Below are positions 1 through 12,160 of a DNA stretch of 12,160 nucleotides, piece by piece. The stretch is from an uncultured bacterium. GTDB lineage: Bacteria; Muiribacteriota; Ozemobacteria; Ozemobacterales; Ozemobacteraceae. The stretch is from assembly GCA_937949615.1 (NCBI GenBank), contig CALEDQ010000018.1:1-12160 (forward strand), in the 5' to 3' direction. Made by a program: the position numbers and the translations under genes. How positions within the stretch are numbered: the stretch's first letter is position 1; every line of letters begins with the position of its first letter. The notes beneath the pieces are model-generated. The model made no database searches. It worked only from the letters and a program-made list of their open reading frames with translations, and was not told the origin of the DNA.

Positions 1-487
1 GCAGGACTTCGCCAGTGGCCGGATTGATAATTGCAACGGTCTGGCCGCAGTAATCAACGAACATTTTGTCGCCGGCCTTATGGATCTGGCGCATGCTGAT
101 ATCGACAGTTCCACTGAATTTTCGATACAGGTCGCAGAAATACGGGTAGCTCAGGCCGTCTGGCTCAGAGGCTTTGTATTCTTCCCAGAGAACCTGAAGA
201 GTGACACGATCTTTTCTATGTTCAAGATGGATCGTTTTCCAGTCGGGTATTGGGCGGCCTGCAGAAGCTCCGGGAGATTTGAAAAGCCTGTTTTCAAGAT
301 CGTCTTCAGTGATAGATTCTGCGATTTCAAGTGTGATGCCGGCATCTTTGGCTCGGGAGAGATATTCCTGAACAGTCGTGCGTCCTATCTTTAGAATACC
401 GGCTATGGCACGTGGGCTTAAGCCCTTGGACTGGCTTAAGCGAAGGACTTCTTTGATTTTTCTCATGCTGATATGCTTTCTGGACAT
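1..487 (-). CDS. istA: IS21-family transposase IstA, N-terminal ~162 aa only; the gene continues beyond the left edge of the window, so it is absent from the supplied ORF track (no stop in window)
   Basis: Manual translation of the minus strand from the ATG at 487 gives MSRKHISMRKIKEVLRLSQSKGLSPRAIAGILKIGRTTVQEYLSRAKDAGI... (HTH), then ...LWEEYKASEPDGLSYPYFCDLYRKF...MRQIHKAGDKMFVDYCGQTVAIINPATGEV. This matches the conserved IS21 IstA N-terminal HTH and the 'MRQ.H.AG.K.FVDY.GQT' block. An AAGGAGA RBS lies about 12 nt upstream of the ATG. The frame is open to position 1. Confidence 0.85.
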   Translation of the reverse strand, partial: MSRKHISMRKIKEVLRLSQSKGLSPRAIAGILKIGRTTVQEYLSRAKDAGITLEIAESITEDDLENRLFKSPGASAGRPIPDWKTIHLEHRKDRVTLQVLWEEYKASEPDGLSYPYFCDLYRKFSGTVDISMRQIHKAGDKMFVDYCGQTVAIINPATGEVL

Positions 488-540
488 TATTCCGGCAGTC
501 TCCTTGATCAGATAACTGATATGTCGGAATAAAGTGCCTG

Positions 541-728
541 TTACGGTTGTAATTCAGTCCAGTAAAGCGTTCTGATGAATCCGGCCACCCATTCTTGTCA
601 TTCCGGCCATCTATTCTGATAAACGGCCACCTGGTGGCCGGATTATTTCAGAAAAGGGTGCCGGATTAAATCAGAACAGGTGGCCGCTTAATTTCAGAAT
701 GAGGGGCCGGATATTTCAAGAATTCACA
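541..728. repeat. IS21-like end region with subterminal repeat array and interrupted palindrome
   Basis: Motif TTCTGA-N4-6-(A)TCCGGCC occurs in plus orientation at 570-587 and 614-631, and in minus orientation at 636-655, 658-678 and 703-722. An interrupted palindrome cggccacc-t-ggtggccg (8+1+8) lies at 624-640. The terminal 24 bp at 705-728 are repeated elsewhere in the window (3001-3043, 4087-4195). Confidence 0.55.
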
Positions 729-751
729 TTCTTCAGTGGCGAGCATGGGAT

Positions 752-2197
752 TTGCTGGTAAAAGGGAAGGAAACTGAAGCCGTCGATGCAATGTTTGATC
801 TCTGGAAAATGGGTCAGAGCCTCGATTCTGGCTATTCGCCTGTTTATCTGAATATTAGCTGTAATATTCGTCAATCGGTTCTTGATACTTTGAGTGATGC
901 GATTGATCTGGAGGGCATGGATGAGGCGGTGATTCGCAAGATTCATGACCATTTCAAAAATGTAGATATAGATGTCTTTGATCGCGGCCGATGGATGCGT
1001 CAGGTAATTCGTGGTCATCTTTATCAGTTGCGTTGCCAAATCGATTATTTGAAAAAACTGCCCGAAGCTGAGAGAAAAGAAAAAGTCGCAAAAGAACTTA
1101 AAGACTGGCTAGATCTTGCGGAATCCGAGGAAGAGAAAGCTACAACCAGAAAAGTATTCAATCGAAAGCTGGATTTCCTGCTCAGTAAAGATTCTGACAA
1201 ACGTATTTTACAGCTCAAAAAAACTTTGGAAAAAGCAGCTGATTTATTCGATCTGGAATTTAAGCTTTCCGAAAAACTTCCTGCTCTCTGGGGTGAAGAT
1301 AATGACTATTATCCATTTCATATCGAAGTATTGGGAAGCGAATTATTTAAGAATAACAATTACTCTGCATCAATAGCTCGTAGCTTTCTTGTCTTCCTGA
1401 AATGGGATTGGGAAAAGCTTCTGGAAAGTATAAAGTTGAATCATGAGTGGCAAAACTGGCAAAAGAATGTTCTCGAAGGAAAAGATTTAAGCCCTGCCGA
1501 AAAGCTTCTTAGACAATGGGCGGGGGGAGATAAAAAAGCCTTCAAAGAGCTTGAGAAGCTTGCCGGGAAAAACGACCGAGACGCCACGGAGATTCTTGCG
1601 ACCCTGTATTGGGAGGGCAAAAAGGTGCCAGAAGACTTGCAAAAGGCATTAGCTCTGTTTAAAGAGACAGCCGCATCGGGAAGTGTTTATTCTCAAATTA
1701 AAGCGGGAGATATCATAGCCAGAGAACCAGAGGCAATGGAAGAGGCCATGAAATACTATAAGTTGGCATCTTTGAAAGACCCGGTTATCTGTGACCAGGT
1801 TTTGAAGTATTTCTTGAAAAATGATCCAGAAGATAAGTCTGGAAAAGCTTTGGAATTGGCTAAAAAAGCATCTCTTTTTGGCTGGAAACTTCCTCAAATG
1901 ATTCTTGGATGCGCTCTTGCGGAAGGCAAGGGTATCTCAAAAGACCAGGTTGAGGCAATGAAATGGTTTATTTCATGTGAAAGCTTTGCCAAAATGGAAA
2001 AAGGATATTACCCGGATTTTTTGTATGAAAAGTGGGATAAGCTCACAGAAGAATTACTGATGAATATGTCGAAAAAAGATCTACTTGAAGCCCGCCGCAG
2101 GGAATACGCCTTTGAGAAAGCTAAAACTGGTGTTGGCATCAATGATGGTAGTATGCAAAGGTATTACAGAATTCTTCTGGTAGGGACTATAAAGTAG
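752..2197 (+). CDS. Hypothetical protein: ~260-aa unrecognised alpha-helical N-terminal domain plus C-terminal Sel1-like (TPR-family) repeats. Start uncertain (TTG 752 or ATG 791); may be 5'-truncated by the IS insertion.
   Basis: Long ORF of 481 aa. The C-terminal third shows Sel1-like repeat signatures (…DATEILATLYWEGKKVPEDLQKALALFKETAASG…, …AMEEAMKYYKLASLKDP…, …GKALELAKKASLFGWKLPQMILGCALAEGKGISKDQVEAMKWFISCE…). The frame is open back to 692 and abuts the IS end at 728. There is no convincing RBS before either candidate start. Confidence 0.6.
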   Translation: MLVKGKETEAVDAMFDLWKMGQSLDSGYSPVYLNISCNIRQSVLDTLSDAIDLEGMDEAVIRKIHDHFKNVDIDVFDRGRWMRQVIRGHLYQLRCQIDYLKKLPEAERKEKVAKELKDWLDLAESEEEKATTRKVFNRKLDFLLSKDSDKRILQLKKTLEKAADLFDLEFKLSEKLPALWGEDNDYYPFHIEVLGSELFKNNNYSASIARSFLVFLKWDWEKLLESIKLNHEWQNWQKNVLEGKDLSPAEKLLRQWAGGDKKAFKELEKLAGKNDRDATEILATLYWEGKKVPEDLQKALALFKETAASGSVYSQIKAGDIIAREPEAMEEAMKYYKLASLKDPVICDQVLKYFLKNDPEDKSGKALELAKKASLFGWKLPQMILGCALAEGKGISKDQVEAMKWFISCESFAKMEKGYYPDFLYEKWDKLTEELLMNMSKKDLLEARRREYAFEKAKTGVGINDGSMQRYYRILLVGTIK

Positions 2198-2302
2198 CAT
2201 TCCAGGTATTAACGACCCCTCAAAATCTGAGTCTGGTTTTGAGAGGGAGCTAAAAACCGGACGTGGATACGTTCCATGTTGGGCCGCCTCCACGGTTTGA
2301 AA

Positions 2303-2345
2303 ACTCGTCCGCTTTGCAAAAAAAGCGGGCGAGTTTTCTGCTTTT
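2303..2345 (+). terminator. Rho-independent terminator downstream of the 752-2197 gene
   Basis: A 10-bp stem (actcgtccgc / gcgggcgagt, one G-U pair) flanks a 12-nt A-rich loop, followed by TTTTCTGCTTTT. Confidence 0.5.
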
Positions 2346-2376
2346 AGAGGTGATTTGATAGAATATAGCTGAAGTT

Positions 2377-3000
2377 GTGGGAAAAGTGATGACAGAAACG
2401 ATTCGGAAAAACAGCAACCGGTTGCAGGGTTACGATTATTCGCAACCCGGTGCCTATTTTGCGACCATATGTGCCTGCAATCGGCAGAATCTGTTCGGAG
2501 AAGTCGTCAACGACCGAATGGAATTGAACGCTGCCGGCATTTTCGCCAGGCAATGCTGGCAGGAAATTCCGCAACATTTTCCCGGCGTTGTATTGGATGA
2601 ATTTGTGATAATGCCGAACCATGTTCACGGGATAATCATTATAAATAACGATAAAAATGGATCCGTAGGGGTTCAGCATGTTGAACCCCTACATGAATCC
2701 CCACATGAAACCCTGCGGTTAAATGGGTTTCAATCGATTGTTTGCGGTTCGCTGGGTTCAATCATTCGCGGTTTCAAATCGGCCGTCACCAGATGGTTTC
2801 ATGCCAACACCCAGATCAAAACCGTCTGGCAGCGCAATTTTTATGATCACGTTGTGCGCGATGAATCAGAAATGAATCGCATCAGAATGTACATCCGGCA
2901 AAATCCGATCAATTGGGAACATGACCGTCAGAATCAGCAATTCATCGGCAGGGTCACTGACCCTGTGGCATTATACAGTTTCGAAACCTGGATGATTTAA
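2377..3000 (+). CDS. IS200/IS605-like Y1 HUH transposase, RAYT-like (PF01797-type). Stand-alone, with no tnpB partner; probable ATG start at 2389.
   Basis: HUH motif in ...FVIMPNHVHGIII... and catalytic-Tyr block ...WQRNFYDHVVRDESEMNRIRMYIRQNPINW... The N-terminal ...RLQGYDYSQPGAYFATIC... is typical of the REP-associated tyrosine transposase / IS200-like family. The protein is 204-207 aa, longer than a canonical IS200 TnpA. Confidence 0.8.
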   Translation: MGKVMTETIRKNSNRLQGYDYSQPGAYFATICACNRQNLFGEVVNDRMELNAAGIFARQCWQEIPQHFPGVVLDEFVIMPNHVHGIIIINNDKNGSVGVQHVEPLHESPHETLRLNGFQSIVCGSLGSIIRGFKSAVTRWFHANTQIKTVWQRNFYDHVVRDESEMNRIRMYIRQNPINWEHDRQNQQFIGRVTDPVALYSFETWMI

Positions 3001-3043
3001 TGAGTATTCTTGAAAATCCGGCCACTTTAAGAAGTTCTTGGCA
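3001..3043 (+). repeat. Solo copy of the IS21-like terminus (TGAGTATTCTTGAAAATCCGGCCACTTTAAGAA), inverted relative to the 705-728 copy
   Basis: Matches the reverse complement of 705-728 (ttcttgaaatatccggcc) and 4087-4140. Starts immediately after the stop codon of the Y1 transposase gene. Looks like the 4087-4140 copy with an internal deletion. Confidence 0.45.
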
Positions 3044-3292
3044 TCAAACCACCAAAATCGTTACAATAGCCTTGGTAATTTAGGGTTCAAGATAAGACCC
3101 TTTGTGCCAGAAATTGAGAAGATTTGCAAAAATATGAAGATAAGAGCCTGACGCTTTTTGGCAGCGCTCTTACCGAAGAATTCAACCCGGACAGCAGCGA
3201 TCTTGAAGTGCTAGCCGAAGCCATCGCCGGGCAGAATTTCTCTGAACTCGACTCAAATAAAACGATCCAGCAGAAACTTCGCTATTGTTAAA

Positions 3293-4054
3293 TTAATCCC
3301 TTGTTGAAGAGATCAGAAGATAGGTTATCCAGATCAGAAAGCCGATCATTACGGCCCATTTGAGAATCTCAAAAGCCAAAACCGGTGCCGGAGATTCAAT
3401 ATAGTCTTCTCTGATACGGGTCTGCCTTATTTCATCAGAGATATTGAGCCAGCAATCAAGTTCTCTGGCGGCTTTAAACGCTGCATCGGCATTGTCCTGG
3501 CCGTTTTCAAAGTGCGACAGATAGATCAGATCACCATTGGTCAGAGTCGCAACCAGAGCCGTGTCTTCAGAGGTTTTTGCCGATTGCTTTCTGCCCAGGA
3601 ACCCGGATATCCAGGAGGTAAACAGCAGGTCAAATATCTCTCTGGACGTGACCTCTGCGTTTCTGGTTTTAACCGAAACACCGATTATCAGCTTCAGGTC
3701 CACTATTTGAATGTCTCTGAAGATATTTTCCAGAAACTGGTGTCGAAGAAGAACAAGACTTTTGCGCTTATCCAGAATATAAGAACTTTTAAAGTTGTTT
3801 CTCAGCCAGTTTGATCCGAATAGAAGCAGTGATCCAATAAGTGCCATGATGATTGATGTGAAAGCGCTTATTTCCGGAGGCGGGGCTCCAATAGAACTCC
3901 CCAGGCCGGTATTACTCGCAAAGACCATAAAAAGCATAACAGTGCCGATAACTATTCCCACCCCAAAAACCGAGTGAATGCCAGTGAGTGCTGGGATCAC
4001 AACTGTCTGCGAATCCGGTTTTATGAGGCAGATCGTTACCTTCTTAACAAGCAT
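3293..4054 (-). CDS. Hypothetical membrane protein (two N-terminal TM helices, ~135-aa soluble middle domain, one C-terminal TM helix)
   Basis: 253-aa ORF. Hydrophobic segments are ...VVIPALTGIHSVFGVGIVIGTVMLFMVFA..., ...ISAFTSIIMALIGSLLLFGSNWL... and, C-terminally, ...APVLAFEILKWAVMIGFLIWITYLLIS. No recognisable catalytic motif. The real start could be an internal Met. Confidence 0.5.
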   Translation of the reverse strand: MLVKKVTICLIKPDSQTVVIPALTGIHSVFGVGIVIGTVMLFMVFASNTGLGSSIGAPPPEISAFTSIIMALIGSLLLFGSNWLRNNFKSSYILDKRKSLVLLRHQFLENIFRDIQIVDLKLIIGVSVKTRNAEVTSREIFDLLFTSWISGFLGRKQSAKTSEDTALVATLTNGDLIYLSHFENGQDNADAAFKAARELDCWLNISDEIRQTRIREDYIESPAPVLAFEILKWAVMIGFLIWITYLLISSTRD

Positions 4055-4086
4055 AGGCTGGTTTCCCGGGCAAAAATATAAATAAC

Positions 4087-4195
4087 TGCGTATTCTTAAA
4101 ATCCGGCCGGTCGTTCTGATTTAATCCAGCCACTTTACAAAACGAAATCACGTGCACAGTAAAATTTTACCACAGGTGGCCAGATCAGGTCTCAG
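4087..4195 (+). repeat. Second solo copy of the IS21-like end (terminus plus subterminal repeats), inverted relative to 541-728
   Basis: TGCGTATTCTTAAAATCCGGCCGGTCGTTCTGATTTAATCCAGCCAC aligns with the reverse complement of 658-728 (ttcttgaaatatccggcccctcattctgaaattaagcggccac). ccacaggtggccagatcagg at 4171-4190 resembles the ccacctggtggccggatt palindrome block. No transposase gene lies to its right. Confidence 0.5.
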
Positions 4196-4667
4196 TCTTG
4201 TTTATTCTTTTCTTTCTCATCGAATCTCCCCTTAAATTCAGTCGCCTCGATATTGCAGGAGTGAAAAAACGATTCAAAAACACGGCCGCGGATATGTTCC
4301 TGTTTGAGCCGCTTCCAATGCACAAGTCCTCGCCTAAAACGGAAATTCCTTGATCTTATCAGGCTTTCAGCAGATTTTTATTGATGAATTCTTGTATAAT
4401 TCGTGTTCATCGGCAACTTTGCCAAGAGTGACAAGAAAGATGCTCTGGTGATAATATTTTGCTTACAAAACATCACTGGCAACAACGTCAACAATATATT
4501 TATCGGCAGATAATGATGAACATGCAGGAGAGTCACATTAATTCAGGGAGCACGCCATCCTGAAATTTCAAGAGGCTTTTAAATTCGCGCTTACGATTAG
4601 TAATTTCTTATTGGCCGCTTGATTAAAATCCTGCCGCAATGCGAAATAATGGAGGCTCAGATTGAAT

Positions 4668-5312
4668 ATGAATAGACACTATTATCTAAAAACCTTCCCG
4701 GGCTGGCTGAAAGCCACAGCTGTTCTGGTGATTCTGCTGACATTCACAGCCGCAGCCAGATCCCAGTCGCTTCCTCAGAAGCCATCCGAAGGCTTGTCAC
4801 TGCCTATTGTCGCCCGTGAGGCCTGGCAAAGTGTTCCGGCAGTAACAGATCGAATGTCTGTCCAGGGTAAAATCAAGGGTATCGTCATTCATCACACAGC
4901 GGGAAGAGCCCCTGTTGAAAAGGATGAAGCCATGATTCTTCAAAACATTCAGAGCTTTCATATGACTGACAAAAAATGGGGAGATATTGCTTACCATTAT
5001 CTGATCGCTCCCTCTGGAAAAATATATGAAGGCCGCAATCCATTGTATCTCGGTGATTCTGGAACCAGATATGATACCAACGGCTACCTGATGATTTGCT
5101 TTCTGGGCACTTACGACAAGCATTTACCCAGTCCACAGGCCAGGTATTCGCTGAAAAAAATCATCAAAAACAAGCTGGCAGAATATTCTCTTGTTGCAGA
5201 TAATGTCTGCTGCCATCGGGATCTGGCGCAAACAGACTGTCCGGGCAATGCGCTTTATGCCTGGGCAAAGTTACAGCGGTGGTCTGAGAAAATTGGTCAA
5301 GCTGATAAGTGA
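4668..5312 (+). CDS. Secreted N-acetylmuramoyl-L-alanine amidase, Amidase_2 / PGRP family
   Basis: GGAGG RBS 9 nt upstream of the ATG at 4668 (the track's TTG at 4662 is in frame just upstream). Signal peptide MNRHYYLKTFPGWLKATAVLVILLTFTAAA. Amidase_2 signatures are ...GIVIHHTAG..., ...KKWGDIAYHYLIAPSGKIYEGR... and the C-terminal ...CCHRDLAQTDCPGNALY (Zn-ligand His/His/Cys pattern). Confidence 0.8.
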   Translation: MNRHYYLKTFPGWLKATAVLVILLTFTAAARSQSLPQKPSEGLSLPIVAREAWQSVPAVTDRMSVQGKIKGIVIHHTAGRAPVEKDEAMILQNIQSFHMTDKKWGDIAYHYLIAPSGKIYEGRNPLYLGDSGTRYDTNGYLMICFLGTYDKHLPSPQARYSLKKIIKNKLAEYSLVADNVCCHRDLAQTDCPGNALYAWAKLQRWSEKIGQADK

Positions 5313-5448
5313 TGCAGGAATTGAATCGGCGGCCAAAAAGTCTCAACCGGTTTTGCTGTGAGCAGTTGAATCTTGCCAAGATCAAATGAAAGCCCGGCTG
5401 AATCGGACGGGAAAATAACCCGAAATGGGCCGCCGTTACCAATGCGCA

Positions 5449-5473
5449 AATCCTTGTCTGATACAGGGATTTC
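5449..5473. terminator. Possible hairpin terminator shared by the convergent amidase gene (+) and the 5473-5853 gene (-)
   Basis: aaatccttgtc-tga-tacagggattt is an 8-bp stem with one G-U pair. It lies immediately after the minus-strand gene's stop and is followed on the plus strand by the T-rich ttctaatcgctattt. Weak. Confidence 0.3.
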
Positions 5474-5853
5474 TAATCGCTATTTGTCTTTATGTACTGA
5501 GGGTAAAAAAATCCAGCTTCATCAATTCTTTTTGCGAGTTCTGGGTATTTCTGTTCCAGAAAAGCATATCTTCCTTTTTTGTAAGGCCTGAGCTGGGCAA
5601 CTTCAAAAACCAGAGCCGCATGCTGAGAAACCTTGGGATATTTGCTGGTACATAAGGTTTTAAGTCTCACTGTATCTTTATGTGAGACGCGCGTCTGCAT
5701 GAAAATTTTAAAAATTTCATCTAATTGATCACGCTCTTCAGTTCTTTGATTAGGTAAGACGTTACATTTTTTGCAAGTGTGCAAAGAGTGGCTTTTTTCA
5801 GTAAAAGCCGACTCTGGTCTTGGTTGGCTGCAAATTCTACAGATGTATTCCAT
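5473..5853 (-). CDS. Hypothetical zinc-ribbon protein (C-x2-C-x18-C-x2-C at the N-terminus)
   Basis: 126-aa ORF MEYICRICSQPRPESAFTEKSHSLHTCKKCN... There is an AGGA ~12 nt upstream of the ATG. It is transcribed divergently from the 6079 gene. Confidence 0.5.
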   Translation of the reverse strand: MEYICRICSQPRPESAFTEKSHSLHTCKKCNVLPNQRTEERDQLDEIFKIFMQTRVSHKDTVRLKTLCTSKYPKVSQHAALVFEVAQLRPYKKGRYAFLEQKYPELAKRIDEAGFFYPQYIKTNSD

Positions 5854-6033
5854 TGCTTAAATTCCTGTTTTTATTACTCGCGGGACATTTGATTCCTGCT
5901 GCAAGCGGAATCATTTTTACAAGCCGCAAAAAATTGCTGTGCAGCTGGTAATATAGATATGTTTAGACTTATAGACAACAAAAACGTTTTATGACCACTT
6001 TTATGGCCAGCGTAACTGCAAATGAAGGTTTTC

Positions 6034-6042
6034 TGGTATGAT
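6034..6042 (+). promoter_or_regulatory. Candidate extended -10 element (TGgTATGAT) for the 6079-6579 gene
   Basis: TGGTATGAT lies 37 nt upstream of the ATG at 6079, with an AGAGGG RBS in between. The -35 is poor (ctgcaa). Confidence 0.25.
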
Positions 6043-6078
6043 GAAAAAATCGTCCGATTTTGGAAAGAGGGCTTGAGC

Positions 6079-6579
6079 ATGAAAATTCGAGTGTTCTCAC
6101 TGGTTTTGACGCTATGTTTCCTGGTAACCGCAGCCTGGGCAAGCTTCTGTTCGAATTGCGGGGAAAAAGCCCGTGAAAGCGACAAGTTCTGCGCGCAGTG
6201 CGGCAAAAAGCTCGTCTCCGAAGCAACTGTCCCGACGAAGGTTCAACCACTTCCTCCTCAAGCGAAGATCAGCAAGATTCCCGTCATAGTTCCGGCCACC
6301 CGAAGGGGAACCAGGGCCAGCCCATTCATCGTACGAACAAAATACCTGAGCATCAACGGCCGGCTTGTTTTCCAGGGCCATGTTTTTTTCATTGCCGACA
6401 TTGTTGGTGAACAAGCCCGCATCTGGTCATGTGACGGCCCGTTTCGCCCCGAACTTCTGATGGGTTGGGTCACCCTCGATGAACTCGAGAAACGATCGAC
6501 CTTCCGGCGGTCTGGAACGGTCTATACCATTGAGCCCTCAATACAATCGAATCCGAAACATAAACCGCATCATCACTGA
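6079..6579 (+). CDS. Secreted/membrane-anchored zinc-ribbon protein (signal peptide, then C-x2-C-x10-C-x2-C, a Pro-rich linker and an unknown C-terminal domain)
   Basis: AGAGGG RBS precedes MKIRVFSLVLTLCFLVTAAWA (AxA cleavage-like site), then SFCSNCGEKARESDKFCAQCGKKL, then ...TVPTKVQPLPPQ... The track's longer ORF (from 6022) adds 19 aa before the hydrophobic segment and has no RBS. Confidence 0.55.
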   Translation: MKIRVFSLVLTLCFLVTAAWASFCSNCGEKARESDKFCAQCGKKLVSEATVPTKVQPLPPQAKISKIPVIVPATRRGTRASPFIVRTKYLSINGRLVFQGHVFFIADIVGEQARIWSCDGPFRPELLMGWVTLDELEKRSTFRRSGTVYTIEPSIQSNPKHKPHHH

Positions 6580-6602
6580 GGTGAGCTTCAAGATTCAACA
6601 AT

Positions 6603-6611
6603 CCCCCCCCC
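6603..6611. repeat. Homopolymeric C9 tract in the intergenic region between convergent genes
   Basis: atccccccccccgaatt; 24 nt downstream of the 6079-6579 stop. Confidence 0.6.
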
Positions 6612-6693
6612 GAATTGTCTGCTTTCCTGATCCAACAAAGCTGGCTGTTATTCCAGAAAATTGCCCTGTTCGAACTGGATATATTCAAAAAGC

Positions 6694-8613
6694 TCAATCG
6701 CCGGCAGGGCCTTTATAGTCTCTTACAAAGTCTTCGACCATATCGGAAGATTCACTGCGCAGGCCGATGCGTTCTTCAATACCTTTCTGAACAGTTTCGA
6801 GCGCAACCCGGGTGACCTCTTCGGCGGCAAAATTATAGCCTCTGGCTACGTCTTCTTCGATCTTTTTAAGTTTCTCCTGGTAAGCTTCAACGCGTTTTTT
6901 CGTCTCTTCGCCAACAAGCGAGTCGACGATTTCTTTACCGGAAACCTTGAGTTCGAGCTCAACCCGTTCTCGAATTGAATCTTTCAGGCGTTCTTCAAGC
7001 TGGGCTGGATTCTGGATCAGTTTGTGAGCCTGTTCGAAGGCGCTGAAAGCCTTTTTCAATTCTGGCTGCGAGTCGATAAAACGCATGGCCTGTTCAAACC
7101 CGTGCTGAGCGACGAGATCGCGAATATTAGAACTGCGCGCGGTATTGATAAGGTCAACAGCCTGCTCGACCCGCAACTTCACATCGGCCGGCAGATTTTC
7201 GACTACGACTTCTTTGAGAATATCCTGACGATTTACGTTCTCGCCATTGATAAGTCTTTTAACCAGCGGGTTCTCACGCACCTTTTCCGGCAGCAGTTTT
7301 TCGGCCAGACGAGAGTTGAGACTTCGGCCCGTTGTCTCTTCAAGCAGATAATTGACGGCATTATACGGATTCGAATTGTTTTTTACGATATCGACGAGCT
7401 TTTTGACCCTCTCGAATTTTTCTGTCACTTCGTTGACTTTTTCGATGGCGCTGCTGATCCACTTAATTGCTTTAATGAAGCCGGAGTCCTCTTTGGGGAG
7501 CTCGGTAAGAAAATCATGGTAGATAAACTGCTCGAGTTCTTTGCGACGGGCTTCAAGAGCCGCCAGCTTCTCGTCTTTAAGGCCGGCTTCTTCCTGAAGT
7601 TTGAGAATCTCGACATTCAGATTCTGCATCTGCAAGCGCAGCTCTTTGCGGTTTCCCCAGTCTTCGGCGGTATATTTATCACGCATAGCTGCGATTTCTG
7701 AAGTGGCATCTGCAATAACTTTTTTGCATTCAGCGATAGTCGGCAGACCATAACGGAATCCATACTTGTGCTGGAAACTGCCATCAGCAACGGCCTTTTG
7801 GATTTTGCCAATCATTTCGTTGCTGTATTTTATATTTTCACGAAACGAACTGGTATTGACCCAGTTGAATGCCCTCGAAGTGTATGTACCTTCAGCAATT
7901 TTCGTGCGCATTTCAGCTATGGTTTTCTGCCATGAAGCAACTGCGTCTTCAGCATTTTTCACATCTGACTCTGTTGCTTTTCCAGATGCCAGTCTGCCTT
8001 TAATGGCTGCTGTTTCTTCAATCTGTTTCTGCAAAGATTTTTCTGCATTTGCCAGCTCCCCGGCATGTTCGGCAGAAAGTCGCTCAAGGTCTTTTTGCCA
8101 GCCGGCAACAGCTTCTTCTGTTCTTTTGATTTCGGCGGCAGCGAATTCGTGAATGCTCTTCAAATGACTTTCCCATTCTTTAATGAATTCGCGTTTCTTC
8201 TGAATCTGAATAAAACAGTCCCATTTGTTTTCTTCAAGCTGCAGCTCTAAAAGCCGCTTTTGCGATTTCTTTTCTTCAATACGGCGAAGCAAGGCAACCC
8301 TCTGTTCCTCGTTCAAATCAGGTGTGTTTTCACTCTGAATTTTTGCAATAGAGCTCTCGGTAAGCGTCAACAAGTCGTTTGCCCAGCTCTTTTTCTGATT
8401 TACGAGTTCTTTAATTTCAGCCGACAGGCGCTGCACTTCTTCTTCATTACCGGTCTTTCGTGCAGCCTGCATTTTCTGCAATGCGGTGCGTTCGGCAATA
8501 TAAACTGAACTTATAATGCCTTCCTGGGCAAAGATTTGAGAGGCGTGAGACACCATTACAAGTAAAATTCCAAGGAATAGAACCGATTTGACAATGCTAC
8601 GGCTGTGCAACAT
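6694..8613 (-). CDS. Secreted 639-aa coiled-coil protein (hypothetical)
   Basis: AGGAGA RBS 7 nt upstream of the ATG at 8613. N-terminal signal peptide MLHSRSIVKSVLFLGILLVMVSHASQIFAQE. The remainder is extremely rich in E/K/L/Q/A with heptad-like periodicity (…EEVQRLSAEIKELVNQKK…, …LELQLEENK…, …EILKLQEEAGLKDEKLAALEARRKELEQ…). Confidence 0.6.
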   Translation of the reverse strand: MLHSRSIVKSVLFLGILLVMVSHASQIFAQEGIISSVYIAERTALQKMQAARKTGNEEEVQRLSAEIKELVNQKKSWANDLLTLTESSIAKIQSENTPDLNEEQRVALLRRIEEKKSQKRLLELQLEENKWDCFIQIQKKREFIKEWESHLKSIHEFAAAEIKRTEEAVAGWQKDLERLSAEHAGELANAEKSLQKQIEETAAIKGRLASGKATESDVKNAEDAVASWQKTIAEMRTKIAEGTYTSRAFNWVNTSSFRENIKYSNEMIGKIQKAVADGSFQHKYGFRYGLPTIAECKKVIADATSEIAAMRDKYTAEDWGNRKELRLQMQNLNVEILKLQEEAGLKDEKLAALEARRKELEQFIYHDFLTELPKEDSGFIKAIKWISSAIEKVNEVTEKFERVKKLVDIVKNNSNPYNAVNYLLEETTGRSLNSRLAEKLLPEKVRENPLVKRLINGENVNRQDILKEVVVENLPADVKLRVEQAVDLINTARSSNIRDLVAQHGFEQAMRFIDSQPELKKAFSAFEQAHKLIQNPAQLEERLKDSIRERVELELKVSGKEIVDSLVGEETKKRVEAYQEKLKKIEEDVARGYNFAAEEVTRVALETVQKGIEERIGLRSESSDMVEDFVRDYKGPAGD

Positions 8614-8896
8614 GCTATTTCTCCTGTTTTTTTTGAGATTGCTGCTGTTTTAATCATTTTATTTTTAATATATTCCAATTACCTGCAGAATTTCACGGTA
8701 TAAAATCAATGGCTGCTTCCTCGCGCCAGAGAACTTCAGTAATGAAGCCGGAATTCAATGAAAAATTAAAAAATATTTATTTTGTCTTCTGAATCTGGCG
8801 AAGAAATCAGGCAGCTTGAATAACCGGCTGAATGGCCGGATTTACATGATGACAAACGCCGAAAATTGTATGATATAGACACGGAAGGAAAATAAA

Positions 8897-9181
8897 ATGA
8901 ATACAAAAATTCGTCATGATCTGACAGATTTGCCCAATATTGGCCGAGAAGTGGCGCGCCTTCTTGCGCTTGCCGGCATCAATACGCCTGAAGAACTGGT
9001 GCGCACCGGTGCAGTGGAAGCGGCCATCAAAATAAAAAACATTCGACCGGATGACCCGCCATGCCGCAGCATGCTTGCCGGGCTGCATGGCGCAATACTC
9101 GGAGTGCGCTGGCACACGATACCAAAACAGGAACGGGAAAAAATCTGGCTGGAATATCTTGCTCAAACTGGCAGTTCATGA
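8897..9181 (+). CDS. TfoX/Sxy C-terminal-domain protein (stand-alone TfoX_C)
   Basis: AAGGAAAA RBS. MNTKIRHDLTDLPNIGREVARLLALAGINTPEELVRTGAVEAAIKIK...CRSMLAGLHGAILGVRWHTIPKQEREKIWLEY matches the TfoX_C pattern (L..LPNIG....L...GI.T...L...GA........S.L..L.GAI.G..W..). Confidence 0.75.
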   Translation: MNTKIRHDLTDLPNIGREVARLLALAGINTPEELVRTGAVEAAIKIKNIRPDDPPCRSMLAGLHGAILGVRWHTIPKQEREKIWLEYLAQTGSS

Positions 9182-9405
9182 TCAGATATGAGCGAAGAAT
9201 TCTGAGAGCCTGCCCTCATGCAGCTTAACAGCTATTCAACCGGCCCCCAAAATATCACTTGCGTTCGTGTTTTTTTTGGATACATTCATTATAGCTGGCA
9301 CCACTTTTCTTTCGGGCGCTTTCGCGTTTGGGTTCTTGTCTGACTCTCAGGTGATGAATCTCTCCGGTTGTGTGTGGTGCCAGCTTTTTATTTCCGGCAA
9401 TTGTT

Positions 9406-9438
9406 GAAAATCCCCGGCCATCACGTGGCCGGGGATTT
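9406..9438. terminator. Bidirectional rho-independent terminator between the TfoX_C gene and the convergent 9481-9945 gene
   Basis: Perfect 14-bp GC-rich stem aaaatccccggcca / tggccggggatttt with a 5-nt loop. A-run upstream and T-run downstream (gatttttctgtttc). Confidence 0.7.
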
Positions 9439-9480
9439 TTCTGTTTCGGCAGACTTTCAGACGCCAGGCAGCGAGGCCTG

Positions 9481-9945
9481 TCAATTTTCGTTGAGCGCAA
9501 AGGTCGCGCGGCGGGCTTCCCCGATCGAGTAAACGACAACTCTGCCATTTTCGATGTCGACGACCTTGAATTTGCCGTTCACAACCTGGCCGGGTCTGAC
9601 AATGTGCTCATCATTTTCGAACTGAACGACGGCCTCTCTGACGCTGTCATTACCGCAGATGCCGGTAACTGTGAGTTTTAGAGGCGGGATCGCTTTCTTA
9701 ATTTCTTTTTGTGGAACGGGTTCGGGCTGCCGCTCGATTTTAACCGGCTCGATAACCTTTTTGGTGATAAGCGGCCTGAATGGGTCGTGGTCGGCGTTTT
9801 CGCTCTGAAATGCGAAATTCTGACAGAGCTGATCGATAACCGCGATTTCGTCGTTCTGGCTTTCTTCAGCCATAAGAGCGGTCATGGCGCAAAAAATTAC
9901 AGCTACAGCAACAGATAACTTCAGGGCCCTGGCAAGCTTTTTCAT
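9481..9945 (-). CDS. Secreted protein with PilP-like features (tentative: type IV pilus / T2SS inner-membrane assembly lipoprotein-like)
   Basis: Strong RBS GAGGAGG 7 nt before the ATG at 9945, so the track's longer ORF from 9993 is probably not the start. Signal peptide MKKLARALKLSVAVAVIFCAMTALMA. A DPFRP motif is followed by a beta-rich C-terminus ...LKLTVTGICGNDSVREAVVQFENDEHIVRPGQVVNGKFKVVDIENGRVVVYSI..., which resembles the PilP pattern (RDPF ... L.GI....A.L......V..GD.I.....V..I....V.L). Confidence 0.45.
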   Translation of the reverse strand: MKKLARALKLSVAVAVIFCAMTALMAEESQNDEIAVIDQLCQNFAFQSENADHDPFRPLITKKVIEPVKIERQPEPVPQKEIKKAIPPLKLTVTGICGNDSVREAVVQFENDEHIVRPGQVVNGKFKVVDIENGRVVVYSIGEARRATFALNEN

Positions 9946-10168
9946 GATCGACCTCCTCGCTGGTGTTCTGGAAATTAGAACGCGAGGCGGCACAACCGGG
10001 TTTAGATTTTTTTACCGGCGCCGGAATATGGCCAGGATAGCTGAATTTACAGATATGAAAGCAGAGATGGCTGCCATGATAATAATGGCCGGCTTTGAAT
10101 TGCCGGTTAAAACTGGTAGACTGACCCGACAGGATAAAAAATGCCGGCTGATTTAAACCCGGCTGCAG

Positions 10169-11254
10169 ATGCCGGTGAACCGGGAGAAAGATATGCAAGC
10201 AGACGAACAGAACAGGCCAGCGGGCCGCGAAATCATCGATATGGCCGGCCGTCGGGTTACCCTGCCCGCAGTCATAAAAACCGTTTATTCGGCTTCTCCG
10301 TATGGGTTTACCGCTCTCTGCAGCATAGCATCAGAGATGCTGCCGGGGCTGATTCAGCCGCTGACGGGCGAAAGCCTGAAGTATCTTCCCGCCTGCCTTC
10401 ATCAGCTGCCGGTAATCGGCATGCTGCCCGACACCGACGGTCTGGCCAAGGCCCGGCCCGATCTGGTGGTCGTCTGGGCCGAGACAAAAAAGCCGTTCCA
10501 TAAAAAATCAGAAGATGCTCTCAATGCTCTCAATCTGCCGTTTGCGTATGTAACCATGGGCGATCTTGTCGATCTGGCCGACTACCCGGCGGCTTACGAT
10601 TTTCTTGGCGATCTGCTCAATCAGAAAGAGCGAACCGACAGGCTGGCTTCATACTGCCGGCAGACGCTGAGCGAAGTCGAGGCGGTTCTGCAGCAGGTTC
10701 CGGCCGACAGTCGCCCGCGGGTTTATTATGCAGAAGGCCGCGATGGCCTGGCGACGGAATTTGATGATTCACTGCACGCGCATCTTCTCAAACTGGCCGG
10801 CGACGTAAACATTCACCGTGGCAACATCAAGACGCATGCGGGTATGGAAAGGGTCAGCATCGAGCAGGTTGCCGCTGCCGGGCCCGATATCATTATCGCT
10901 CTCGAACGGGCTTTTTTCGCCGATGTCTTCAGGAACCCTGAGTGGCAGCAGGTAAAGGCGGTAAGAGACCGGCGCGTCTTTCTGATTCCGTCGCTGCCTT
11001 TCAACTGGTTCGACCGTCCGCCTTCCTTCATGCGCTTTATCGGGCTGAAATGGCTGATGAAATGCCTTTATCCCGAGCATTACCAGATCGACCTGATCGC
11101 TGAAGTCAGGCATTTTTTCAGTCTTTTTCTGGGCATCACGGTTTCGGCTGCCGAGGCTGCCGAACTTATAAACCAGCCGGTCAGGCATCAGACAAAAGGC
11201 CTGGCACCGCATCGTTACCCCGATTCTCTCAAGCCAACGGGCAAAGCGGGCTGA
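10169..11254 (+). CDS. ABC transporter substrate-binding protein, Peripla_BP_2 (FecB/BtuF, iron-siderophore/cobalamin) family. No N-terminal signal peptide visible; possible starts at 10169, 10193 or 10241.
   Basis: Class III PBP architecture: ...IIDMAGRRVTLPAVIKTVYSASPYGFTALCSIA... LPVIGMLPDTDGLAKARPDLVVVW ... ALNALNLPFAYVTMGDL ... LGDLLNQKERTDRLASYCRQTLSEVEAVLQQVPADSRPRVYYAEG ... LLKLAGDVNI ... VSIEQVAAAGPDIIIAL ... PEWQQVKAVRDRRVFLIP. GC is about 60 percent. Confidence 0.7.
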   Translation: MPVNREKDMQADEQNRPAGREIIDMAGRRVTLPAVIKTVYSASPYGFTALCSIASEMLPGLIQPLTGESLKYLPACLHQLPVIGMLPDTDGLAKARPDLVVVWAETKKPFHKKSEDALNALNLPFAYVTMGDLVDLADYPAAYDFLGDLLNQKERTDRLASYCRQTLSEVEAVLQQVPADSRPRVYYAEGRDGLATEFDDSLHAHLLKLAGDVNIHRGNIKTHAGMERVSIEQVAAAGPDIIIALERAFFADVFRNPEWQQVKAVRDRRVFLIPSLPFNWFDRPPSFMRFIGLKWLMKCLYPEHYQIDLIAEVRHFFSLFLGITVSAAEAAELINQPVRHQTKGLAPHRYPDSLKPTGKAG

Positions 11255-11356
11255 GCCGGTGAGCGCAAATAATTTCTTTTAAAATTGCAGATTTACGAAG
11301 TCATAGCAGCTTAAACAGTCGATTCAATCCAGACACTACAGAACAGGTGAGCAAAA

Positions 11357-12160
11357 ATGAGTCTTTCAGCCGAAGAACTTAAAAATCTATTGAAACAGCA
11401 CAATACCGCAGGCATCAGCATCGCGGTTCTGCGCGATTTTCATCTGGCTTATACGCAATGTGAAGGCGTTATCAGTGAAGAATCGCGCGAACCTCTCTGG
11501 CCTGACACGGTTTTTCAGGCGGCGTCGATCAGCAAGGTCATTTCTGCGGTTTTAACCATGATTCTGGTTGAAAAAGGCAGACTGGACCTCGACAAACCGG
11601 TAAATAAATATCTGAAGTCATGGAAACTGCCTGAAAACGACTTCACCAGCAAGACTCCGGTAACCATCAGACGGATGCTCAGTCATTTTTCCGGTATCAA
11701 TGTGCCGAGTTACCGAGGTTTTGCAAAAAAAGGCCCGATACCCTCATTGTCAGACGTATTGAAAGGAACCAACCCATCTGACGCGCCGGCGGTACTTGTT
11801 GAAAACCCGGTTGACGGGCAATTCGCTTATTCTACCGGCTCTTTTGCGGTTCTACAGACGATTTTACAGGATGTTACCGGCGAAAATTTTGAAGCGCTGG
11901 TGCAGCGCGAACTGCTGCAGCCGTTGAACATGTACAGAAGTTTCTTTGCGCAGCCACTCAGCGGGCATTTGAGCAAAAATGCAGCCTGCGGCCACAGCAC
12001 TGACGGCGAACCGGTAGAAGGCAACTGGTTTGTCTACCCGACTCAGGCAGGCAGTGGCATCTGGACAACCCCCACCGACCTGGCCAGACTTGCCCTGCAT
12101 CTACAGAAAATACTGCAGGGCAACACTTCAGGTCTGCTGCAGCCACAGTCGCTGAAAACG
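11357..12160 (+). CDS. Serine hydrolase, class C beta-lactamase/esterase family (PF00144-like), 5' portion; it continues beyond the right edge, so it is absent from the ORF track
   Basis: Manual translation from the ATG at 11357 (AGGTGAG upstream) gives MSLSAEELKNLLKQHNTAGISIAVLRDFHLAY...PLWPDTVFQAASISKVISAVLTMILVEKGRLDLDKPVNKYL... with the S-x-x-K active-site motif (ASISK) and ...GQFAYSTGSFAVLQTILQDVTGENFEALVQRELLQPL... (Y-S-x block). The frame is open to position 12160. Confidence 0.75.
   Translation, partial: MSLSAEELKNLLKQHNTAGISIAVLRDFHLAYTQCEGVISEESREPLWPDTVFQAASISKVISAVLTMILVEKGRLDLDKPVNKYLKSWKLPENDFTSKTPVTIRRMLSHFSGINVPSYRGFAKKGPIPSLSDVLKGTNPSDAPAVLVENPVDGQFAYSTGSFAVLQTILQDVTGENFEALVQRELLQPLNMYRSFFAQPLSGHLSKNAACGHSTDGEPVEGNWFVYPTQAGSGIWTTPTDLARLALHLQKILQGNTSGLLQPQSLKT

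Follow-up and report, generated by a model that had tools for sequence, protein, structure and literature searches.

In insertion sequences (IS) of the IS21 family, IstA binds repeated units of 22-23 nt in both terminal regions, whereas the AAA+ ATPase IstB captures the target, and integration duplicates 6-7 bp of target DNA, within a family range of 4-8 bp for the target-site duplication (TSD). Each end of these elements has been described as comprising two repeats (PMC10122671), and IstA tetramers synapse the two ends and use the 3'-OH of the terminal CA, with IstB shaping and delivering the target (PMC10122671, PMC11208146). Here we analyze a 12,160-nt stretch of DNA from an uncultured bacterium of the Ozemobacteraceae (assembly GCA_937949615.1, contig CALEDQ010000018.1, positions 1 to 12,160; hereafter, the window), in which three termini of a single type of IS21-family element, designated A, B and C, lie within 4.3 kb. 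A previous interpretation based on the letters of the window (hereafter, the sequence-only reading) had taken these termini to delimit two adjacent segments of mobilized or trapped cargo. The results presented here make it very likely that the window contains instead one recent IS21-family insertion (A) and two older right-end stubs (B and C), all of them located in dispensable island DNA linked to transfer-messenger RNA (tmRNA), and that no packaging of cargo is involved.

The termini were located with the search pattern GGCCGGAT N0-1 TTT N0-1 AAGAAT, which matches the window at 705-723 on the forward strand and at 3006-3023 and 4092-4108 on the reverse strand, and which found no match in any of 200 dinucleotide-preserving shuffles of the window. 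All three matches are accounted for by IS21-type termini, with tips at 705-728 (A), 3001-3023 (B) and 4087-4109 (C). The strings quoted in the sequence-only reading were located where it had placed them, the orientations it assigned are correct, and the three termini are genuine IS21-family ends. The extents that it proposed stood only in part: the motifs are real, but C ends at 4241 and not at 4195, and only 3001-3033 of the segment attributed to B is derived from the IS, positions 3034-3043 lying outside it. The outer tip of A, at 728, points right, and the tips of B (3001) and C (4087) point left, those of A and C being opposed across 3.36 kb. Because the tip of A and those of B and C face each other, the intervening DNA lies outside every element and could not be moved by a pair of outer ends. 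Scans with the tip pattern returned six stretches from 596 Gb of genome sequence and 15 from JGI metagenomes. The majority of these 21 stretches are full copies or stubs of this same element, while five of them (L010, L013, L015, L032 and L038) have no similarity to the IS outside the pattern itself and the similarity in L033 is restricted to the 23-nt tip (91%). An origin of the motifs in a genome-wide repeat of the repetitive extragenic palindromic (REP) kind, unrelated to the IS, is contradicted by the recovery of only 21 stretches, mostly of this IS, and by the continuation of C into istB.

The complete element is represented by L014, a 2630-bp contig with a tip at each end, in which the right-end tip at position 1 is followed by istB (100-882) and istA (821-2389), both on the reverse strand, and by the left-end tip at 2630. 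The two genes overlap and encode products of 522 aa (IstA) and 247-260 aa (IstB), and the ends are 5'-TG..CA-3' inverted repeats made of multiple repeated units. The termini of the window match this complete copy: window 1-728 corresponds to L014 1903-2630 at 93.1% identity, and window 4087-4241 matches L014 at 93.6%. Complete copies matching both regions are also found in L018-L021. The encoded proteins pass their family models, with IstA of L018 scoring 289.5 bits on NCBIfam NF033546 (cut-off 160) and IstB scoring 249.9 bits in L018 and 250.4 bits in L014 on NF038214 (cut-off 200). A homologue search with the 162-aa IstA fragment encoded in the window yielded only short matches of at most 57% identity and missed the full-length protein; the search with the full-length L014 IstA, used in its place, succeeded. 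Given that IstA is only ~49-51% identical to its nearest annotated plasmid relatives (ISIde2 and ISPre4 families), the element is, as far as its predicted proteins and ends indicate, an unnamed, new member of the known IS21 family.

Other copies of the element differ in their completeness and flanks. The L018 copy is inserted in a resolvase gene and is bordered by a 7-bp TSD, GCTAAAG. The copy in L036 (536-3165) is likewise complete, at 2630 bp; its flanks (..ggaaagaa on one side and tcttcaag.. on the other) show no duplicated target, and it may result from chimeric assembly or from recombination between copies. A recurrent remnant (L024-L026, L034) consists of the left 1150 bp of the IS, with istA shortened to 308 aa, and adjoins a gene encoding 396 aa. 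With 97.8% identity to window 1-731, this remnant type resembles copy A more closely than any other matching DNA does.

Copy A is a recent, polymorphic and simple insertion. The window contains the 5' part of its istA gene (1-487, reverse strand; 162 codons, with the ATG at 487 and the gene leaving the window), the product of which scores 80.4 bits on NF033546 and the DNA of which is 93-98% identical to that of L014, L018 and L024. Upstream of istA lies the left terminal inverted repeat region (L-TIR; 488-728, reverse strand), with the TG of its outer tip at 728 and with an array of 22-23-nt repeats at 570-722, four of them direct (636-722) and about three inverted (570-633). The tip is followed by the right copy of a 6-bp TSD, TTCTTC (729-734), and by the 3' part of a gene encoding a secreted Sel1-repeat protein (729-2197, forward strand; Pfam Sel1), the open reading frame (ORF) of which begins in the window 24 nt from the tip of A. 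The 5' 438 bp of this gene are located on the far side of the IS in L055, where they precede the IS right end, istB and part of istA; the gene is split after approximately codon 146. The intact gene product, encoded in Logan contigs, comprises 632 aa (P0092, P0325) and is 100% identical over the window ORF.

The insertion site can be reconstructed from both of its junctions and from its empty form. With a slash marking the IS boundary, the left junction (L055) reads ..AGACTTCTTC/TGTGTATTC, the right junction (window) reads ..TTCACA/TTCTTCAGTGG and the empty site (L016, L056) reads ..AGACTTCTTCAGTGG, defining the 6-bp TSD. A 7-bp duplication was also considered and was ruled out by the actual Sel1-IS junction protein (P0324), obtained from cluster members. 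In the empty alleles of L016 and L056, which share 99.9% identity with window 729-2313, homology begins exactly at 729 and the sequence runs on upstream without a break; together with the recovered junctions, this near-identity identifies copy A as recent and polymorphic. Short-read (Logan) contigs of the same strain end at window positions 674-678, within the IS end, which indicates that the IS is repeated in the genome. Since A has its own TSD and an empty site within a gene, position 729 lies in the middle of a gene and is not the edge of a cargo segment.

Stub C (4087-4241, forward strand) is a 155-bp remnant of the IS right end, containing repeat units R1 (4087-4109) and R2 (4110-4133) and an inverted unit at approximately 4173-4195. 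It includes, both on the reverse strand, the istB stop codon (4185-4187) and the last 18 istB codons (4188-4241). Because it aligns to the terminus of L014 opposite to that matched by A (L014 1-156), C is the istB-distal right end of the same element. It differs by ~6% from the right end of the active copy of this same genome (L055; 93.7% identity). C measures 155 bp in the window; its inner junction is the same in L037, where it measures 157 bp, and the L035 copy measures 189 bp. The window copy presents further changes: R1 is short of one G, R2 reads CCAGCC instead of CCGGCC, and the inverted unit reads GGCCAG instead of GGCCGG. A deletion derivative retaining a second end was considered as a source of C and rejected, as a degenerate left-end remnant sought in 4242-4661 gave no similarity above noise.

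Stub B (3001-3033, forward strand) is a 33-nt right-end stub with its tip at 3001 and its interior to the right, made up of the R1 tip and of 10 nt from beyond R2. Its tip matches the right-end tip of L018-L021 at 23 of 23 positions and window 3015-3033 matches L014 38-56 at 18 of 19 positions, from which it follows that the 23-nt R1/R2 repeat has collapsed in B, with loss of the R2 unit. No IS similarity was detected downstream of either B or C. With a single repeat in B and no partner end for C, both stubs are predicted to be inert for transposition: having neither a partner end nor a transposase gene, they could not move anything. We also considered selection on B, given the absence of mismatches to L030 over 2964-3072 where the estimated background divergence is ~4%, but this mild excess of conservation is not convincing. 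Minimal pieces of the IS are also found in L011, which harbors a 43-bp fusion of its left and right tips (3036-3078) and a 71-nt right-end stub (1787-1857), both of them 35-75 nt upstream of a repeat resembling clustered regularly interspaced short palindromic repeats (GTTTCAATCCACGCGCCCGCACGGAGCGCGAC).

Related contigs provide a relative chronology for the three termini. The names attached to members of the 90%-identity protein clusters assign the organism to a Candidatus Rifleibacterium / Ozemobacteraceae lineage. L030 and L035 present the same order of Y1 transposase-like gene, B, membrane-protein gene and C, and L037 contains the membrane-protein gene and C without Y1 and B. The outer flanks are identical wherever a stub is present (..gatgatttaa/TGAG for B in L030 and L035; ..aaatataaataac/TGCG for C in L030, L035 and L037). 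The presence of C at the same site in these three contigs, and of B in two of them, establishes that C is older than A and that B probably is as well. As judged from their alignments, B and C are old, decaying remnants of the same element, and not MITEs (miniature inverted-repeat transposable elements). No IS sequence was found in a further lineage (L042-L049; eight places shown, from 24 contigs read), which aligns to window 3224-4086 and whose homology ends exactly at the C tip, between 4086 and 4087. Identity across the membrane-protein region is ~96% among the three IS-bearing lineages and 93-94% between these and the IS-free one. A single insertion of the putative parent copy of C after the split from the IS-free lineage would fit these observations.

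The boundaries of the variable DNA map to a different kind of repeat. A dispersed repeat of ~80 nt, ending in a terminator hairpin, is a degenerate copy of the 3' end of the tmRNA gene (ssrA) together with its terminator. In the window, this repeat is found at 2259-2343 (forward strand), where it constitutes an attachment site (att)-like module boundary recognized through an nhmmer family and by alignment to the ssrA genes of L042 and L037, and where Logan contigs break. A partial, degenerate att-like copy is located at 4284-4337 (forward strand; nhmmer E = 1.8e-06), with a score of 41 against real ssrA and a shuffle maximum of 29, and a third, very degenerate copy lies at approximately 5395-5440 (forward strand; score 30, shuffle maximum 23). 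The best case is the L051 orthologue of 4284-4337, which scores 92 against a shuffle maximum of 30 and still reads GGGTTCGATTCCC..CCTCCA. The repeat also precedes the Sel1 gene in L016, L055 and L056, and is present in L012, L030, L037 and L052 (coordinates in L016, 1-79; in L056, 2-47, 3587-3669 and 5715-5768; in L052, 374-453 and 1893-1949). Real ssrA genes are found a few kb away in relatives, at 9776-10135 in L042 (ARAGORN) and at 8870-8926 in L037 (Rfam, 51.7 bits). The window itself contains no tRNA or tmRNA gene and no Rfam match at either threshold, owing to the shortness or degeneracy of the ssrA-like repeats, the identity of which is based on the alignments to real ssrA. A REP element tied to the Y1 gene had been entertained for the 80-nt repeat and was dropped once the real tmRNA gene was found in relatives. 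No integrase family was detected among the window ORFs scanned against Pfam and NCBIfam.

The ssrA-like repeats flank three modules, containing, respectively, the Sel1 gene; the Y1 gene, B, a nucleotidyltransferase (MNT) pseudogene, the membrane-protein gene and C; and an N-acetylmuramoyl-L-alanine amidase gene (Pfam Amidase_2; 4662-5312, forward strand) that behaves as a presence/absence module, being absent from L035, L037 and L042-L049 and present in L050-L054. Compared with the window, L030 has no Sel1 gene upstream of Y1, L035 is devoid of the amidase and Zn-ribbon genes, L037 is devoid of Sel1, Y1, B, the amidase and a 639-aa gene, and L052 harbors MNT, HepT and a 198-aa gene in place of the region from Y1 to C. 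The amidase, Zn-ribbon (6022-6579) and 639-aa (6694-8613) genes are each missing from at least one close relative (L035, L037, L042 group), and the variable zone therefore reaches well to the right of the IS ends. As read from these alignments, the variable modules are bounded by degenerate ssrA 3' ends, not by IS ends, and make up a putative eroded ssrA-linked island array. The proposal that the segment is non-core agrees with these results, since the left 5.4 kb of the window varies between close relatives in the form of accessory modules. The GC content does not support a bracketing by these ends, as there is no GC step at the IS ends (0.430 for 729-3000 and 0.445 for 3044-4086, compared with 0.452 for 4242-9200); the value is 0.521 from 9200 to the end of the window and 0.401 for the 5' part of the Sel1 gene, outside the bracket.

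Taken together, these observations suggest a history in which copy A jumped recently into the Sel1-repeat gene, disrupting it, whereas B and C would be the leftovers of two far earlier insertions from the same element lineage, of which only the right end was kept. Both stubs would have originated as full copies inserted in place, the remainder of which would have been lost through later deletions or replacements, and the clustering of the three ends would reflect permissive, non-essential DNA rather than targeting of IS ends. IS21 elements had been said to target their own ends; a literature search on end-targeting or MITEs in the IS21 family returned nothing useful and hence no support for that statement, and possible IstB-mediated target immunity is mentioned for the family instead (PMC11208146, 2024). 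IstA produced by A could at most bind C through its R1 and R2 units, which are mutated in this strain, and might thereby promote deletion or rearrangement.

Several aspects of the data sit uneasily with this history. The full extent of copy A was pieced together from the window and L055, which belong to different assemblies. For B and C, no second junction and no TSD could be recovered, and the exact tip boundaries are the only ground for their origin as full copies inserted in place. No relative carries an intact Y1 gene without B, so that B has no clean empty site. In the IS-free relatives, homology resumes at window position 5265, in the last three amidase codons: their junction joins ..AAATAAC to ACCAG, followed by these three codons (7794-7800 in L042, reverse complement), and amidase variants of 205 aa end in ..LQKW and the stop codon. 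An extra replacement or deletion step is thus needed. If the IS-free lineage never had the IS, the lineage of the window and L037 would at a later time have exchanged the part of the IS body starting at bp 155 for 41 nt, the att-like repeat and the amidase gene, the right crossover taking place in homologous DNA. Lastly, the remnants in L012 (98-286) and L035 (1420-1608) present an identical 189-bp breakpoint and different outer flanks, and beyond the breakpoint both continue into ~28 nt of similar ssrA-3'-end-like sequence, a fusion that random decay would not predict.

This shared breakpoint raises the question of whether the stubs could be products or substrates of specific recombination instead of passive debris left by random decay. 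A tmRNA-island integrase might have used a secondary site within istB, or IstA might cut at orphan right-end tips and thereby drive deletions and module loss. The joining of the same 189-bp breakpoint to similar ssrA-like sequence at two loci speaks for such a process, as do the proximity of the ssrA-like repeat to the stub (~40 nt after it in the window and L037, directly after it in L035 and L012) and the exact coincidence of the deletion or replacement endpoint in the IS-free relatives with the C tip. The breakpoint is nonetheless common to only two loci, and homologous exchange between IS copies could have moved the flanks; the IS-free lineage is an outgroup by sequence identity and may simply never have carried the IS. 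The window, moreover, contains no integrase gene, and no similarity of an att core to istB around position 189 was noticed in a by-eye look. On balance, we regard specific recombination as improbable. A related possibility is that B and C derive from the IS as non-autonomous, MITE-like units mobilized in trans. Solo tips and short end stubs are indeed common in metagenome contigs (L027, L028, L029, L031, L040, L041), L011 contains the 43-bp tip fusion, and a unit of 189 bp is common to L012 and L035, where its outer flanks are not the same. The sequence-only reading was correct in describing B and C as solo remnants without a transposase gene, but its MITE-like label finds no support: neither has a second, inverted end or visible flanking duplications, C extends into the coding part of istB and breaks off at an arbitrary position that varies among orthologues (155, 157 and 189 bp), and B keeps one repeat, whereas ends of this family are described as having two (PMC10122671). 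Mobilization in trans is therefore highly improbable.

The composite IS21 structure put forward initially, in which two segments of mobilized or trapped cargo (729-3000 and 3044-4086) are enclosed by the three ends, draws on the presence of three related ends within 4.3 kb and on the accessory nature of the DNA between them, which differs among relatives. Several features of the locus conflict with it. Copy A is bordered by a 6-bp TSD of its own, its empty site lies in a gene that continues past the IS, and it is polymorphic among strains that are 99.9% identical, whereas C is common to three diverged contigs and B to two of them. The opposed tips leave the intervening DNA outside the elements, C is only a 155-bp stub, the module boundaries coincide with ssrA-like repeats, and there is no step in GC content at the IS ends. 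We thus find a composite structure barely credible, and favor the succession of one recent insertion and two much older, decayed ones in dispensable island DNA.

The Y1 (HUH) transposase-like gene (2389-3000, forward strand; 203 aa), which resembles REP-associated tyrosine transposases, scores 24.7 bits on Pfam Y1_Tnp and 54.6 bits on NCBIfam REP_Tyr_transpos, below the cut-off of 80. Homologues of similar length align to residues 6 to ~185, indicating that the gene is full-length and not truncated, and its family is a very large one, with 27,609 representative clusters at E<=0.001. Relative to L052, window 2345-3045 contains ~700 bp of additional sequence between the att-like hairpin and the MNT gene, comprising Y1 and stub B, a size like that of an IS200-like unit. 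The decayed pseudogene of an MNT-type nucleotidyltransferase antitoxin (3085-3291, forward strand; weak Pfam NTP_transf_2 match) shares 89% identity with the 5' portion of the MNT gene of L052, which is intact and encodes 99 aa. The pseudogene has lost its start codon and contains an in-frame stop; L052 carries an intact MNT-HepT pair at the corresponding place. The 253-aa membrane-protein gene (3293-4054, reverse strand) has no family match and is conserved in the relatives bearing the module (L030, L035, L037, L042-L049). Further to the right, a perfect GC-rich hairpin at 9407-9439 (ccccggccatcacgtggccgggg), followed by a run of T and kept in relatives, looks like a terminator between convergent genes.

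The value of these results lies mainly in annotation. They describe an unnamed member of the IS21 family that is currently active in Riflebacteria-like bacteria of digesters and sludge and that inactivates the gene for a secreted Sel1-repeat protein in part of the population, and they assign the neighboring accessory genes to a putative eroded tmRNA-linked island array rather than to IS-borne cargo. They involve no new mechanism, and illustrate that a cluster of IS ends can be a sign of DNA that tolerates insertions instead of a transposon.

The locus can be set against four types of described systems. With IS21-family elements such as IS21 and IS5376, the element shares overlapping istA and istB genes, TG..CA ends, repeated units resembling IstA sites (L1.., R1/R2), a TSD of 6-7 bp within the family range and a length of ~2.6 kb (PMC10122671); it departs from them in its unusually repeat-rich left end, with four direct and about three inverted units, and in its host, an uncultured Riflebacteria-like lineage. 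As in composite transposons with an IS-cargo-IS arrangement, related IS sequences flank accessory genes, but a second complete IS is missing here, as are a pair of ends pointing outward and a common duplication, and the flanking insertions are of very different ages. Like tandem arrays of ssrA-targeting integrative elements, the region displays direct, degenerate repeats of the ssrA 3' end and terminator between shifting modules, with an intact ssrA gene at one side, seen here in relatives; it differs from such arrays in that the window has no integrase gene, in that no intact ssrA gene of this genome was recovered, and in its modules, which measure just 1-2 kb and have the look of eroded remnants. 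Finally, B and C share with the solo IS ends and truncated IS remnants of genomic islands the retention of one end and the deletion of the rest, as well as their fixation at orthologous sites and their decay at different rates in sister lineages; relative to typical cases, they stand out in that both stubs are right ends in the same orientation, and in that the 189-bp breakpoint recurs at a second locus.

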